This document shows positions 2,278 to 49,533 of a stretch of 64,000 bases of DNA, piece after piece. The stretch comes from Escherichia phage vB_Eco_F26, in the sequence record OP870145.1; one strand, 5' to 3'. The notes below the pieces were generated by a model, which was not told the origin of the DNA, did not search any database, and worked only from the letters and a program-made list of their open reading frames with translations. Within the stretch, counting starts at the first letter, position 1, and each line of letters begins with the position of its first letter. The position numbers and the translations under genes were made by a program.

Positions 2278-2580
2278 TTATTTACCTTTAATTACTTTAG
2301 CTGCTTCGATAGCCGCTTGCTGAAGGTCATCCATAGACATACCGAATTTAGAAGCAAAGTTATCAATTTTCTTTTCGACAGCATTCAAAGGCTTGGCCTG
2401 TTTACCTTCATTAGCGCCAGGAAGAGCGAGAATACGCTCTTTGTCAATATAAAGGCTTACAAGTTTCTTACGGTCTTTATCGGACAAATCATGAAATGAA
2501 TGGGCCTTTTTATTTATAGCGGCTTCTAATTTACCTGCACTCACTCGCGCTTCAGTAATAAATTCTTGATATGTTTTCAT
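2278..2580 (-). CDS. internal protein (IP) family, 100 aa, with capsid-targeting sequence
   Basis: N-terminus MKTYQEFITEA is the T-even IP capsid-targeting sequence ending in an I-x-E prohead-protease site; size and position next to e resemble T4 ipII. Confidence 0.75.
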   Translation of the reverse strand: MKTYQEFITEARVSAGKLEAAINKKAHSFHDLSDKDRKKLVSLYIDKERILALPGANEGKQAKPLNAVEKKIDNFASKFGMSMDDLQQAAIEAAKVIKGK

Positions 2581-4991: not shown

Positions 4992-5585
4992 TTATTTCAG
5001 AGAATTAATGTATTCCTGAACATCGGCAGAAGTAGTTTCAACCCCAGAAATATTACCGTTAAAGGTTTCAACTCGAGCAAGGGTATCTTCAATATCAACC
5101 TTAGTCAGTGCTGCAATTTCAACTACATCATCAGCAGTACTAATTCCAAGGGCATTTGCTGCACGAGTTTCACGGATATATTCCAATTTAACTGCAAGTT
5201 CTTGGCGAGCATCATCCAATTCAACTACTTTCTTGGCGATTTCAATTCGCATTTCAGCATACCCATCAGCTTTAGTAGTCAACTGTTCAGCTGTTCGACG
5301 ATATAGCAAGCCGAGTTTAGCATGCATTGTTACATCTTGACCTTCGGAAAGAAGCTTGCGAATTTCACGCTCTTTTGATTCAGCCTGTTTATTCTTTTCA
5401 ATAACAAGTTCACGAATACGTTTTTCTTCATTAATAGATTTAACAGAAGCAGTTTTTAGGTCTTTAATTTTATCAAGTAATTTTGCTGCTGCAGCAGTGT
5501 ACTGTTCTTCAACAGATAGATTTTTAGCCATAGCAGAACCAAGTTTAGTGCGAATAAAATCAACAATTTTCTTCAGTGTGTTCAT
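4992..5585 (-). CDS. coiled-coil protein (197 aa), possibly PspA/IM30-like
   Basis: ORF; N-terminal amphipathic segment followed by heptad-rich helical sequence; family assignment is an unverified impression. Confidence 0.6.
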
Positions 5586-5629
5586 AGTATTTCCTTAGGT
5601 TAATTAAGATTTAAAATCCATGAGAGTAT

Positions 5630-5806
5630 TATACTCCGGATAGTTTGTAAACTATTTCAACATCGCCTTTTGCTGCTTTATAACCTTCAGCCCAAGATAC
5701 AACCGAGTTTTTATCTGAAGATTCAAATTCTGGCATTGGACTTTCATCAATGTTCACACAGTATGTTTCTTCATTTTCGTCAAACCAAATAGTTAAAGTA
5801 GTCATT
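5630..5806 (-). CDS. small hypothetical protein (58 aa), below ORF-track cutoff
   Basis: ATG at 5806 preceded by GGAGAAATAA SD; translates to MTTLTIWFDENEETYCVNIDESPMPEFESSDKNSVVSWAEGYKAAKGDVEIVYKLSGV. Confidence 0.4.
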
Positions 5807-5873: not shown

Positions 5874-6137
5874 TTATTTCATATTATTGAAATATTCTTC
5901 TGCGATTTCATCGTTATCGTGGTAAACTTTAGAAGACAGTTTAACATAACCTTCAGCAGTGAACATATTAATCACAACTTTTACAGTATACCACTGACCG
6001 TCTTCATTACCCATTACTGCGTAAGTTTCAAACATCGGATGGTCAGGACCGATAACTTTAATATCATTCACTGTACGACCGAAATCTTCTGAAACGCATT
6101 TCATAAAGAAGTTGAACAGTTCGCCGTAATTATCCAT
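5874..6137 (-). CDS. hypothetical small protein (87 aa from ATG; ORF track gives 5874..6149 from TTG)
   Basis: ATG at 6137 with GGAG SD 7 nt upstream; first 8 codons lie inside the 350-bp tandem repeat. Confidence 0.55.
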   Translation of the reverse strand: MDNYGELFNFFMKCVSEDFGRTVNDIKVIGPDHPMFETYAVMGNEDGQWYTVKVVINMFTAEGYVKLSSKVYHDNDEIAEEYFNNMK

Positions 6138-6180
6138 TTCATTCTCCAAGTTGTTTTCTGTATCAGTAGTTGATAGTTGT

Positions 6181-6210
6181 ATAGTACCACGGAAGAACAG
6201 AGATGTAAAC
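6181..6210 (-). promoter_or_regulatory. T4 early-type promoter (GTTTAC -35 / TACTAT -10 with A/T-rich upstream region), repeat copy 1
   Basis: Minus strand TTTTCACAAAACTGTTTACATCTCTGTTCTTCCGTGGTACTAT upstream of ATG 6137. Confidence 0.5.
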
Positions 6211-6341
6211 AGTTTTGTGAAAAATTTTTTAAAAAGTTTTAGGGAATTCTAGGGAAGGGAGGGGCAATTAAAGGATAGGATAATATATTATAAAGGGTAG
6301 AAACTAAATGATGCCTAGAGAGGTCCAGAAAGGCCTAGATG

Positions 6342-6368
6342 CCAAAAAGCCCTATCATTTAGATAGGG
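6342..6368 (-). terminator. intrinsic terminator (hairpin CCCTATC-taaat-GATAGGG + T-run), repeat copy 1
   Basis: Minus strand CCCTATCTAAATGATAGGGCTTTTTGG. Confidence 0.5.
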
Positions 6369-6530
6369 ATTTAAAATTATTTATCTAGTTTAGTTATTAT
6401 AGCTTCTACGGCAGCTTTTAGCTTAGATGCGGTGTTAATACGATTTTTAATTTCAGTATACGCGAACAGTTCGCCGTAATTATCCATTTCATTCTCCAAG
6501 TTGTTTTCTGTATCAGTAGTTGATAGTTGT

Positions 6531-6560
6531 ATAGTACCACGGAAGAACAGAGATGTAAAC
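6531..6560 (-). promoter_or_regulatory. T4 early-type promoter, repeat copy 2
   Basis: Duplicate of 6181..6210. Confidence 0.5.
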
Positions 6561-6691
6561 AGTTTTGTGAAAAATTTTTTAAAAAGTTTTAGGGAATTCT
6601 AGGGAAGGGAGGGGCAATTAAAGGATAGGATAATATATTATAAAGGGTAGAAACTAAATGATGCCTAGAGAGGTCCAGAAAGGCCTAGATG

Positions 6692-6718
6692 CCAAAAAGC
6701 CCTATCATTTAGATAGGG
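6692..6718 (-). terminator. intrinsic terminator, repeat copy 2, directly after IP gene stop
   Basis: Duplicate of 6342..6368; follows stop codon at 6727. Confidence 0.5.
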
Positions 6719-6726
6719 ATTTAAAA

Positions 6727-7290
6727 TTATTTATCTAGTTTAGTTATTATAGCTTCTACGGCAGCTTTTAGCTTAGATGCGGTGTTAATACGATTTTTAA
6801 TTTCAGTATACGCATCGCCAAGAACATCAAGGCTATCAGAATAAACACTTACACTATTGCGTTCGCTATTTGAAATAGAACCTTTAGTTTTACGATCAAA
6901 ATCGGTGTACACGTCTTGAAGATCACGCGCTGCCTTCTTTGCATCATCCAATGCATCAAGAGCTTTATTCAAAGCATTAACGTATTTTTTAGTGTCGAAC
7001 ATATTCTTAGAAATTTTAGCAGGTGCACGTTCAGGAGTAGCTAATACAGATTTAGGAACCTGAGCGCCAGATGCCAATTTCTTAGAAATTTTGAAAAACG
7101 CTTTATTGAATTTATTTTCTTGACTCATCGTAAAAGAACTATTATCGATGTTGTACATTTCAATAGCTTTAGCTTTCCACTTAAGAAAATCGCCGCGGTC
7201 TTTTGGGTCCAAGTGGAAAAATACTTTAGTAAGATCTGCTTCAGATGGTAATTTTGCTGCTTCGGTTAAAAATTCGGCATAGGTTTTCAT
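6727..7290 (-). CDS. internal protein (IP) family, 187 aa, with capsid-targeting sequence
   Basis: N-terminus MKTYAEFLTEA (CTS with L-x-E protease site); size similar to T4 IPIII. Confidence 0.7.
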   Translation of the reverse strand: MKTYAEFLTEAAKLPSEADLTKVFFHLDPKDRGDFLKWKAKAIEMYNIDNSSFTMSQENKFNKAFFKISKKLASGAQVPKSVLATPERAPAKISKNMFDTKKYVNALNKALDALDDAKKAARDLQDVYTDFDRKTKGSISNSERNSVSVYSDSLDVLGDAYTEIKNRINTASKLKAAVEAIITKLDK

Positions 7291-7380: not shown

Positions 7381-7405
7381 AAAAACCCCAACCTTTCGGT
7401 CGGGG
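7381..7405 (-). terminator. intrinsic terminator (CCCCGACC-GAAAGG-TTGGGG hairpin + T5)
   Basis: Minus strand GCCCCGACCGAAAGGTTGGGGTTTTT directly after the out-of-frame stop at 7415. Confidence 0.55.
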
Positions 7406-7551
7406 CTAAGAATGTTATTTGATTTGTTTAGCAGACCAAATGCGGTCTTTGATGATTTTTTGAATGTCTTCAACATACTCAAGAGAGTGAACATGTGGAT
7501 TATCTTTGAAACTATAAGCACGGGCTAACTTTTGGCCTTCGGTTTTGATTA

Positions 7552-7887
7552 CTAAAAGCTCTTTAAGGATAGCTTCATATTTAGCGATAATTCCTTTAAC
7601 GATATTTTTTCTTGTGCAGCTTTAGGATCTGCTTTAGGAGCAGGTTTACCCGAAGCCTTTGCAAAAGCAGCACCAGTAGCAACTAAACTTTTCCAGGCCA
7701 TACTAACCGCATTTCCTGTAAATCCTTCTGCTTTCATGTCGCGAGCAAACTGGAATCGTGATTCGTCAGAAGCATCTTTATAGGAATATTTACCCGCTGC
7801 AATGGCTGCTTTTGCGACAGCTTGAATTTCGGTGCTAGATGCTTCATTTAACACCGCTTCATTTAAAAATTGAGCATATGATTTCAT
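7552..7887 (-). CDS. internal protein (IP) family with CTS; reading frame as given ends early, likely frameshifted at T6 run 7605..7610
   Basis: N-terminus MKSYAQFLNEA; after the homopolymer a second frame stays open for 62 codons to a stop at 7415 that abuts the terminator. Confidence 0.6.
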   Translation of the reverse strand: MKSYAQFLNEAVLNEASSTEIQAVAKAAIAAGKYSYKDASDESRFQFARDMKAEGFTGNAVSMAWKSLVATGAAFAKASGKPAPKADPKAAQEKISLKELSLNMKLSLKSF

Positions 7888-7937
7888 CTTATTTCCTGTT
7901 TTAATTCGTGGATTTAATATACTACTATATTTATACT

Positions 7938-7964
7938 AAAAAGCCCCAACCTTTCGGTCGGGGC
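7938..7964 (-). terminator. intrinsic terminator (second copy of the CCCCGACC-GAAAGG-TTGGGGC hairpin + T5)
   Basis: Minus strand GCCCCGACCGAAAGGTTGGGGCTTTTT. Confidence 0.55.
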
Positions 7965-7968
7965 TAAG

Positions 7969-8276
7969 CCTTGCGGCAACCTTGTCGGGGTTCCACCTGC
8001 TAAGGCAAGTGTTTGTACGAAACGCCGGGATTCGAACCCGGTTATTAAGCAGTTGACGCTACTTAATATTTTTAAAAGGCCATATCTCGACCATATCCGA
8101 ACGTTCCGTCAAAAACGCTACTCGGCTTACGGCAAAGATATTTCCTCGAATCGATAATTCGGTGCGCCGTTTCTGCTGTGATGTAAGAGGGCATCAACAA
8201 ATCATAAAGATTTATTAACACAATTCCTTACCCAGGGAACATCAGTCCGACGACTTACCGGTAGCGACCCGGTTTC
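7969..8276 (-). ncRNA. putative stable small RNA region distal to the tRNA cluster
   Basis: About 300 nt with no ORF >=60 aa on the minus strand, GC-rich paired segments, a tRNA-like T-arm (CCGGGTTCGAATCCCGG) without a canonical acceptor stem, terminator immediately downstream; T4 has species 1/2 RNAs near its tRNAs. Confidence 0.25.
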
Positions 8277-10757: not shown

Positions 10758-11015
10758 TTATTTTAAATCTTCTAATCGTTTCTTCATCTTAGAACCATTT
10801 TTAGCGATTTCGCCTGCATCAGAGCATAATGCTAAAAGCGCTTTAACTTTAGTTTGGTCTCCTTTAAAAGATGAAGGATCGACTGCAGCAGCAAGTTCTT
10901 TAATACGAGAGAAAAGACGCTCAGCTTCAGCTAAAGCCATTCCAAGCTTTACTTCCATACCGTGTGAAGATTCAGTGATAGTAGTTTTTGTAGCAAACTC
11001 TTTGAAAGTTTTCAT
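10758..11015 (-). CDS. internal protein (IP) family, 85 aa, at the ipI position next to 57B
   Basis: N-terminus MKTFKEFATKTTITE (CTS-like, I-T-E protease site); early promoter upstream. Confidence 0.7.
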   Translation of the reverse strand: MKTFKEFATKTTITESSHGMEVKLGMALAEAERLFSRIKELAAAVDPSSFKGDQTKVKALLALCSDAGEIAKNGSKMKKRLEDLK

Positions 11016-14021: not shown

Positions 14022-14473
14022 TATGCCCCCTTAAAGCCAAGAGCTCGTAATCCATCTTCTGTTAGAATTCTAAATTTTATTCCACGCTTTTCAGCTAAAG
14101 ATTGTGCTGCTTTCCATTTGTCAGTGTTCACAGACCAGGTATAAATTTCATTCATAAATCTTTTCTTCGCTGCAGTTGTTAGATGTGCTGGTTTAACTGG
14201 TGGTTGTGTTTCTTTTTTAGGTTTTATTTCAATAAAAAATTCTTGCCCAGAAGAATCTTTCATCCAAATATCCATGAAGTATCTACGTTTTTTCCCTTCT
14301 GCATTACAAAAATAAGGAATTACTGCTGTTTCACTACCCCATGCAATAATTTCTGGATTTTTATCTAACCATTCAAAAAAGAATTTTTCCCAATTTGATC
14401 TATACGTAATTTTTTTAGGGTCACCTCTATACTTTGATATATTTTTAGGAACCCATTTTCCAGAATATGCCAT
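14021..14473 (-). CDS. 4: head completion protein gp4
   Basis: 150 aa; synteny. Confidence 0.85.
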
Positions 14474-31415: not shown

Positions 31416-31444
31416 CATGGGCCGCAAGGCCCAAAGGATTTTAA

Positions 31445-33955
<2,511 letters not shown>

Positions 33956-48117: not shown

Positions 48118-49533
48118 TTATGGATAGGTATAGATGATACCAGTTTCTAAAGCAGTTTTATGAATGATGTATCCATTACGCGATTCTTGGACATCAACTT
48201 CTGGATAGTCTTTAATCATCTTCTGAAGAGTGTAACGATGCAGGTAGTATTTACTATCTGGGTCGTCAGTTTTCCAATCTTTACCTTCTTCGGTCATTTT
48301 TTGGATTTCATCCATAACCCACCAACCGCACCAGATATAAGCTGAAGTACGATGTGGAAGAGGATGAACATAAGGTAGTTCACCTTCTGGTTCAATTGGA
48401 GTCCGTTCAGCAATAACAACTTCAGCTGTTGAACTAATTGTCTTTGAAGTGTAATTATCTTTAGTTAATACTGCTTCAACTTTAATTGTATGAGTACCCG
48501 CTGAGGAGGTATCAATACTATAAGTATTAGTAGAATTACTTTCTGCTACGTTGTCTTTCTTCCAAGAGTACACAATATTAGTATCACCAGGAGCACCAGT
48601 AACAGATGCTGTTAAAGTTGCAGTTCCACCAACAGTAGTATTAACTGATGGCGGAGATAAAGAAATGGTGGCACTATTAAATGTCGCATTATTAGTTACT
48701 ACTGTTGCTTCTGCTGAAATTTCTTTTGTAACATAATTTGTTGCAGAAACAGATGCGGTGCATTTAAGAGTTTTACTTCCGACTTCGGTCGGAGTGAATT
48801 TATACGTAGCAGAAGTTGCATCCGGAATATTACTGTCATCCATTGACCATTGGAATGTTATAGTAGCACCTGAAGGTGCACTAGAGACATTTGCAGTTAA
48901 AGTAATAGGAACACCAAAGACTGTAGTCGGAGACTCGGGTGTAATTTTTAGCGTCGAAGAATTAGCCTTTTTATTTACAGTCAAAGAAACCGCTGATGAT
49001 TCTACTGTTTTATCAACGTAATCAGTTGCAGTCACTGTGACAGAGCAAGTTATAGACTTAGTTCCTTCAGTTGTTGGTGTATATTCAAAGGTTGATTGCT
49101 TTTGACCGTCAACATCGACCCCGTCAACTTTCCATGTATAATCAATAGCAGCACCAATAGGTTGATTGCTTACATTAGCAGTGAATGTTGTTGCTGTTCC
49201 AATTTCTACTGCCGCAGGAGAAGCCGGAGTAACAGTGATAGTGGAATTATTTTCTTTCTTATTAACAGTGATAGTTGTTGATGCTTCAGCTATTTCCGGA
49301 TCTCCTGCGGAAAGTGTATTAGTTGCAACCACTTTAATTTTTTTTGTTCCTGCTGGAGAAGCAAGAGTATAATCCATTGTAGCAGCCGTAGAGCCCTGTG
49401 TTATATCATCTACAGTCCAGACGTATGTAATAGTACCGTCTGGGGTTTCACCTGCAGGTGTAGCAGTGAATGTTTGTGAACCTCCAATAACCCCTGTAGG
49501 AGTTAGAGGAGATAACGTGACAGTGAATGCCAT
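48118..49533 (-). CDS. hoc: highly immunogenic outer capsid protein Hoc, 4 Ig-like domains
   Basis: 471 aa; four ~90-aa Ig-like repeats plus conserved C-terminal capsid-binding region; T4 Hoc recalled as 376 aa with three. Confidence 0.85.
   Translation of the reverse strand: MAFTVTLSPLTPTGVIGGSQTFTATPAGETPDGTITYVWTVDDITQGSTAATMDYTLASPAGTKKIKVVATNTLSAGDPEIAEASTTITVNKKENNSTITVTPASPAAVEIGTATTFTANVSNQPIGAAIDYTWKVDGVDVDGQKQSTFEYTPTTEGTKSITCSVTVTATDYVDKTVESSAVSLTVNKKANSSTLKITPESPTTVFGVPITLTANVSSAPSGATITFQWSMDDSNIPDATSATYKFTPTEVGSKTLKCTASVSATNYVTKEISAEATVVTNNATFNSATISLSPPSVNTTVGGTATLTASVTGAPGDTNIVYSWKKDNVAESNSTNTYSIDTSSAGTHTIKVEAVLTKDNYTSKTISSTAEVVIAERTPIEPEGELPYVHPLPHRTSAYIWCGWWVMDEIQKMTEEGKDWKTDDPDSKYYLHRYTLQKMIKDYPEVDVQESRNGYIIHKTALETGIIYTYP

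Follow-up and report, generated by a model that had tools for sequence, protein, structure and literature searches.

A probable single-base deletion at a recurrently variable A-run truncates a putative internal head protein gene in Escherichia phage vB_Eco_F26

A gene of the accessory T-even family phrog_2280 (7887..7415, minus strand) has six A's in Escherichia phage vB_Eco_F26 where intact alleles have a run of seven, and past this deletion it is read in the wrong frame. The gene lies in the 64,000-nt stretch of the phage genome analyzed here (OP870145.1; the whole stretch is called the window), and its product would be an internal (injected) head protein. The loss is probably real and recent, a slippage frameshift in a dispensable gene at a hot spot where such mutations recur. 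The A would most likely have been lost from A7 by replication slippage on the homopolymer. The ribosome is predicted to leave the native frame after K94, add 17 unrelated residues, and stop, so that the truncated product would keep its targeting signal and N-domain and lose a C-terminal hairpin. The same run appears to have slipped independently, and in both directions, in other phages, and the shifted alleles would be young and probably transient.

In the window the mRNA carries A6 (T6 on the plus strand) in the context GCACAAG AAAAAA TATCG, and the zero-frame codons across the run are GCT GCA CAA GAA AAA ATA TCG. Translation from the ATG at 7887 gives the 111-aa product found in the ORF list, MKSYAQFLNEA...QEKISLKELSLNMKLSLKSF, which continues after AAQEK with the tail ISLKELSLNMKLSLKSF and ends 17 codons past GAA AAA at a TAG (7554..7552), just where a preliminary description of this DNA had placed the end of the short ORF. 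Read one base back from the run, the sequence gives NIVKGIIAKYEAILKELLVIKTEGQKLARAYSFKDNPHVHSLEYVEDIQKIIKDRIWSAKQIK up to a TAA at 7417..7415. This −1 frame (NIVKGIIAKYEAIL...WSAKQIK) is uninterrupted as far as the stop at 7415, as first described, and holds 63 codons starting from the AAT at 7606..7604, not the 62 originally counted. On the 5′ side of the run the −1 frame is open for only about five codons, with many stops before them. We rejected the idea that the downstream frame has a start of its own: neither the ORF list nor the six-frame translation offers an ATG, GTG or TTG in frame, in agreement with the preliminary description, and stops lie immediately upstream. The features of the gene and its surroundings are collected in Table 1.

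Table 1. Features of the frameshifted gene and its cassette in the window.
Feature	Position	Strand	Description
Upstream terminator-like hairpin AGCCCCGACCGAAAGGTTGGGGCT with T-tract	7942..7965	-	10 pairs, 7 GC; closes the upstream unit and forms the 5′ edge of the cassette
Late-promoter motif TATAAATA	7928..7935	-	About 40 nt upstream of the ATG; matches the T4 late-promoter consensus
Shine-Dalgarno-like AGGA	7894..7897	-	6 nt before the ATG; sequence aacAGGAaataagATG
Capsid-targeting-like N-terminus, codons 1-10, MKSYAQFLNE	7858..7887	-	Putative prohead-protease site L-N-E/A (L8-N9-E10/A11)
Present ORF	7552..7887	-	94 native residues and a 17-residue out-of-frame tail; identical to WBF80172.1 (F26_0136)
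A6 run	7605..7610	-	A7 in intact relatives (GAA AAA AAT); the window is short of one A
Displaced C-terminal coding segment	7415..7606	-	63 codons (N95-K157 of the intact protein) and TAA; predicted helical hairpin
Terminator-like hairpin	7384..7407	-	10 pairs, GC-rich, T-tract; closes the cassette, with 7 nt between it and the true stop
Intact paralogue F26_0135	6727..7290	-	187 aa, MKTYAEFLTE/A, phrog_2280 (E = 8e−53)

A search of the region against phage records resulted in 402 matches with 80–99% identity. The four close relatives that were fetched (PBM-1, ESh16, P8, and JB75) each have A7 and one 474-nt CDS, and the sole indel within the gene in the alignment to them is the window's missing A. 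The gene is therefore interrupted at the homopolymer, as the preliminary description had proposed. When one A is added, the window encodes a 157-aa protein identical to AEK12394.1/AXC34087.1 (ime09, JB75), and residues 1–157 of this restored protein match positions 1–172 of the 178 of phrog_2280 (E = 1.7e−60). An exact database protein and a phrog_2280 match on adding a single A mean that the frame is not open by chance. The C-terminus of the protein is truly encoded in the shifted frame, which the preliminary description had also claimed. No relatives of the restored protein were found in Pfam or NCBIfam, and the database entries of the phrog_2280 family are all named "hypothetical protein."

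We gathered 26 distinct alleles of the gene from isolates, IMG/VR, metagenomes, ENA, and Logan. With the run set to A7, every one of them translates end to end. The pN/pS of the 62 codons after the run is 0.08 in the restored frame, compared with 1.5 and 2.0 in the other two frames, so the downstream frame is a real coding sequence under purifying selection. Set against its homologues, then, the longer reading is the one that holds, with a single full-length CDS in the relatives. Between the window and the intact allele nearest to it, that of PBM-1, there are seven substitutions (three upstream and four downstream of the run), all of which are synonymous in the restored frame. Either selection acted on the frame up to very recent times, or the A6 is an artifact. 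Judged from these sequences, the F26 frameshift appears to be evolutionarily recent.

The run also varies in length in other phages. A6 was found in at least five allele backgrounds: the window; the Logan assembly of ERR4993045 (L012); Shigella phage SfPhi01 with its DRR175055 Logan contig and also Escherichia phage 235Ecol030PP (L013 with L014/L015); a divergent 154-aa-type allele present in a 172.7-kb ENA contig with a MEGAHIT-style k141 name and in a Logan contig (L016/L017); and a G8-type allele in a metagenome contig (L036). A8 was found in at least two backgrounds (L018 and L037), in vB_EcoM-G28 (L037), ECO07P3, and another ENA contig (L018). In a neighbor-joining tree of the alleles the shifted ones are separate tips, each beside an A7 allele. 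The ERR4993045 allele is 99.9% identical to PBM-1 over 2.86 kb (two SNPs and the run) and 97.3% identical to the window; lying near the former and far from the latter, its A6 is independent of the window's A6. Counted conservatively, the sequences require a minimum of five separate −1 and two +1 events, spread over at least four allele backgrounds. The downstream frame (63 codons) is still open in every shifted allele, and the distance from a shifted allele to the nearest sampled intact one is 1–28 nt (12 nt or less in five of seven). Given this recurrent and independent gain and loss of an A, the run is a natural mutation hot spot, and its variation is probably neither sequencing error nor programmed recoding.

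In the phage collection, run length was read from the alignment span and the identity band with A6-containing 35-mers, seeded beside the run. Four flank-specific queries covered 237 of about 400 gene-bearing records, and among these 237 binned rows the verified non-A7 cases, checked row by row, are two A6 and three A8, with no more than 14 records not A7; G28 is counted twice among the A8 rows (GenBank and RefSeq), as duplicates occur in the collection. Exact-pattern scans of IMG/VR and protein-guided retrieval from IMG/VR and the JGI metagenomes gave 5, 10, and 8 loci, too few for frequencies. These loci added one A6 allele (L036) and one allele (L032) in which the run is interrupted by a synonymous GAG (GAG AAA AAT). 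For P0019 and P0022 the support comes from protein sequence. The run is thus intact in 25/26 distinct alleles, with ~30–40% divergence elsewhere. A preference for AT-rich codons alone would give GAA AAA AAT.

The other reading of the F26 allele is that the deposited consensus miscounted the homopolymer and that the phage really has A7. A single-base homopolymer difference is the classic type of sequencing error, an error would also leave the remaining differences from the intact alleles all synonymous, and we found no sequencing platform in the literature for F26 (nor for T4_ev240). Set against this is the rest of the assembly. Over ~55 kb that align to G8 with ~97% identity, and which include many essential structural genes, no homopolymer gap in a long ORF is left uncompensated except the one at the focal run; other odd-length gaps are intergenic or occur as compensated pairs in divergent stretches. 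With no further homopolymer frameshift in a long ORF, the assembly is not error-ridden. The miscounting of A7 runs is also rare in the collection as a whole. Only four coding A/T runs of at least 7 nt exist in the window's ~58 kb of coding sequence, and none besides the focal run lies in the same ~3-kb loci, so a control from within the locus is powerless. The A7 run at 14410–14416 in gene 4, which is essential, served as a control. All 500 phage records checked there, with a query designed so that A6 variants would show up, have A7. The difference between at least 5 verified non-A7 of 237 at the focal run and 0 of 500 in gene 4 (Fisher p = 0.003) controls for sequencing error, not for the underlying mutation rate, since gene 4 is essential, and does not show the focal run mutating faster than other A7 runs in dispensable genes. 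Finally, A6 and A8 at the focal run are repeated in independent assemblies, some of them apparently short-read, and the contig names of shifted alleles (Logan; MEGAHIT-style k141) suggest a short-read origin. A sequencing error in F26 therefore seems unlikely, and of the three explanations offered in the preliminary description (error, recent inactivation, and phase-variable slippage) a recent real frameshift is favored.

An intact protein could also be produced if the full-length product were still made from A6 by −1 ribosomal frameshifting or transcriptional slippage, leaving the gene functionally intact. The frame needed is indeed −1, and an AAA in the P-site can re-pair with an AAA if it moves back by one base. 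In dnaX and IS elements, A-runs are known to cause slippage of Lys-tRNA and stuttering of RNA polymerase, and the F26 gene resembles these systems in that an A-run joins two overlapping frames coding for one conserved protein. It differs from them in that the two-frame arrangement is exceptional, most of the relatives examined being in frame, including the four closest, and in that there is no in-phase X XXY YYZ heptamer or stimulatory structure. With GAA AAA ATA in the zero frame, only the P-site tRNA could re-pair, while the A-site tRNA cannot. No stable RNA fold was found in the 100 nt downstream of the run (−11.2 kcal/mol, z = +0.78, equaled or bettered by 151 of 200 shuffled sequences), and no Shine-Dalgarno-like stimulator is present in the sequence upstream of it. 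A6 is moreover shorter than the run length required for efficient transcriptional slippage. We therefore regard recoding that keeps the gene functional as highly improbable. A trace of full-length product from A6 by background slippage is plausible.

The motif MK[ST][YF]xx[FL]xxE occurs three times in the six-frame translation of the window, each time at the start of an ORF and each time followed by A: in the frameshifted gene (MKSYAQFLNE), in its paralogue (MKTYAEFLTE), and in an Ip2-like gene (MKTYQEFITE; 2580..2278, minus strand) that matches phrog_7857, "internal virion protein." The frameshifted ORF thus does begin with the capsid-targeting type of N-terminus ascribed to it at the outset. 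The prohead protease (gp21) cuts at (L/I)-x-E followed by a small residue. T4 Ip1, Ip2, and Ip3 and the T-even ip genes share an MK(T/S)Y..F..E signal followed by a small residue, and there are further likenesses to this group: small genes in variable regions beside the e gene and the tRNA cluster, terminator hairpins on both sides of the cassette, a late-promoter motif, and multiple unrelated or paralogous copies per genome (PMC3012670, PMC12373910, PMC4122927). The probable identification of the product as an internal (injected) head protein draws on two features, its N-terminal motif and the context of a late-promoter match. T-even internal proteins are packaged by means of the N-terminal signal and enter the host together with the phage DNA; the GmrSD type IV restriction enzymes that Ip1, Ip2, and Ip3 inhibit are different in each case (PMC3012670, PMC12373910). 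Packaging, injection, and an anti-defense role would be expected of the phrog_2280 protein by the same token.

Past the first ~10 residues, however, it has no sequence or fold similarity to Ip1–3, from which it is also separated by PHROG family (2280 vs. 7857 and 3499) and by having no Pfam family. Beyond the signal we found no similarity to a named Ip, a Pfam or NCBIfam family, or a PDB fold, and fold searches against PDB and BFVD gave no functional lead. The AlphaFold model is of moderate confidence (pLDDT 73, pTM 0.45). It predicts a disordered signal (residues 1–15), a helical N-domain (18–74), a low-confidence Pro/Lys linker (75–87), and a helical hairpin (88–154) made of helices 88–125 and 132–154. 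The run corresponds to codons 93–95 (GAA AAA AAT), just after the linker, so that the hairpin would be missing from the products of the A6 and A8 alleles, with the signal and the N-domain retained.

The gene sits between e.8-like genes and the tRNA cluster, in a variable region of T-even genomes. The motif TATAAATA, which we take to match the T4 late-promoter consensus, occurs only once on the minus strand between 5500 and 8700. The terminator-like hairpin after the gene has an annotated terminator in the same position in JB75. It does stand close to the stop, as the preliminary description had it, although with 7 nt between them and at 7407..7384 rather than 7381..7405. The upstream hairpin is a 97% copy of the one at 7381–7410. 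The hairpin AGCCCCGACCGAAAGGTTGGGG therefore flanks the frameshifted gene on both sides (7942–7965 and 7384–7407), and weaker relatives at 6345–6374 and 6695–6724 flank the next cassettes. Promoter-terminator modules have been proposed to shuffle genes in the hyperplastic regions of T4-type phages (PMC4122927), and the layout of the cassette, with TATAAATA and flanking hairpins, looks like such a module.

Two other sequences in this neighborhood stand out. At ~7980–8060 on the minus strand, between a 116-aa gene and the cassette, is a sequence (GGTTCGAATCCCGG...) that resembles the 3′ half of a tRNA. Neither ARAGORN nor Rfam at the gathering threshold makes a call for it; it may be a remnant or a T-even small stable RNA. 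The segments 6114–6413 and 6464–6763 form a perfect tandem duplication with a period of 350 bp (300 nt at 100% identity), which creates a chimeric ORF (6377..6499, minus strand) with an e.8-like N-terminus (MENEMDNYGELF) and the C-terminus of the 187-aa paralogue. The duplication could be a real recent event or an assembly artifact.

The vB_Eco_F26 genome (OP870145, 172,940 bp) is the longest known in Tequatrovirus (PMC13353012), and the window differs from G8 and other close relatives at several further points. A single Ip2-like gene (2580..2278, phrog_7857) is found at 2227–2680, where G8 has three internal-protein genes, and at 10758–11015, the ipI locus beside 57B, there is a different internal head protein (phrog_3499, MKTFKEFATK...). 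With these differences at the Ip2-like and ipI loci, the repertoire of injected proteins is unlike that of close relatives at all three loci. Between the fibritin and gene 13 regions the window has an insertion that G8 lacks, an ORF of 813 nt (32371–33183, plus strand) with an HNH endonuclease motif, and it holds one of the four coding A/T runs of at least 7 nt (32761–32767). Among the coding homopolymers of the window the longest is T8 (A8 in the mRNA), at 49338–49345 in a hoc-like non-essential gene (ORF 48118..49533, minus strand). Two 1-nt deletions relative to G8, at 31419 (G4 to G3) and 31430 (C4 to C3), fall on the two arms of an intergenic GC hairpin. They are thus a compensated change, and the stem stays paired.

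T-even internal proteins are non-essential (PMC12373910), and an intact paralogue adjoins the frameshifted gene; on these two grounds we consider the gene dispensable. As a mechanism, homopolymer slippage in a gene of this kind is ordinary. The A-run hot spots of the Streisinger type in T4 rII and e are similar in that single bases are gained or lost in replication, the same site is hit recurrently, and the change is tolerated because the phage can do without the gene in the growth conditions concerned. Those hot spots were found in laboratory mutant spectra, whereas here there is a natural polymorphism of A6, A7, and A8 between isolates, seen in deposited genomes and metagenomes.

The preliminary description had suggested that the gene is prone to slippage and might be phase-variable. 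The first part is borne out by the A6, A7, and A8 runs that several independent events have left in different phages; phase-variable use is a candidate. As a contingency switch, the A7 would be kept because reversible +1/−1 slippage toggles the injected protein between full-length and truncated forms, and populations would keep a standing mix of the full-length (A7) and truncated (A6/A8) effector. Such a tract lies within a coding sequence and varies in length both ways among close relatives, as is the case here. The Campylobacter phage receptor-binding poly-G contingency loci likewise have a coding homopolymer whose length differs between close genomes and turns a frame on or off. Those tracts are hypermutable, whereas this one is 7 nt only, is A/T and not G/C, and is a putative switch; A7 is short for a classical contingency tract. 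That both directions are represented, by at least seven independent events in at least four allele backgrounds, would fit a switch, as would the conserved downstream frame that remains intact in every shifted allele, expected of OFF states that revert or are short-lived. Mutation-selection balance in a weakly selected gene fits the same pattern. The retention of the run in 25/26 alleles in spite of their divergence, in a window with just four coding A/T runs of this length, could likewise point to a maintained tract, but it is also predicted by AT-rich codon usage for E-K-N, and the synonymous GAG in L032 breaks the run with no obvious consequence. Also in favor of a switch is the arms race in which type IV restriction enzymes and related injected proteins are engaged (PMC12373910). 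Taken together, we find both a contingency switch and a standing mix of forms quite unlikely. If the switch were real, selection would favor OFF or truncated forms on hosts whose immunity detects the full-length protein or that lack its target, and the gene would be regained by reversion. An anti-defense cargo protein would then be subject to phase variation through a homopolymer, in the best-studied group of phages.

A recent frameshift at a natural hot spot, which we prefer, changes how the locus should be read. F26_0136 would be a frameshifted allele of a conserved 157-aa gene, rather than a gene of 111 aa with 190 nt of non-coding DNA behind it, and the same annotation problem exists in G28, SfPhi01, 235Ecol030PP, and ECO07P3. 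Several deposited genomes have only the truncated ORF of 97 or 111 aa annotated (G28, NC_054916.1, L037; 235Ecol030PP and SfPhi01, L013/L014), and ~190 nt of conserved coding sequence are left unannotated between the called stop and the terminator (5585–5774 in G28). The phrog_2280 family is an uncharacterized candidate that would bear a packaging signal like that of the type IV restriction inhibitors. Its repeated knockout at a hot spot, together with strong purifying selection, suggests a benefit that depends on the host. Natural isogenic ON/OFF pairs, such as PBM-1 and the phage of ERR4993045, may help in finding its target.
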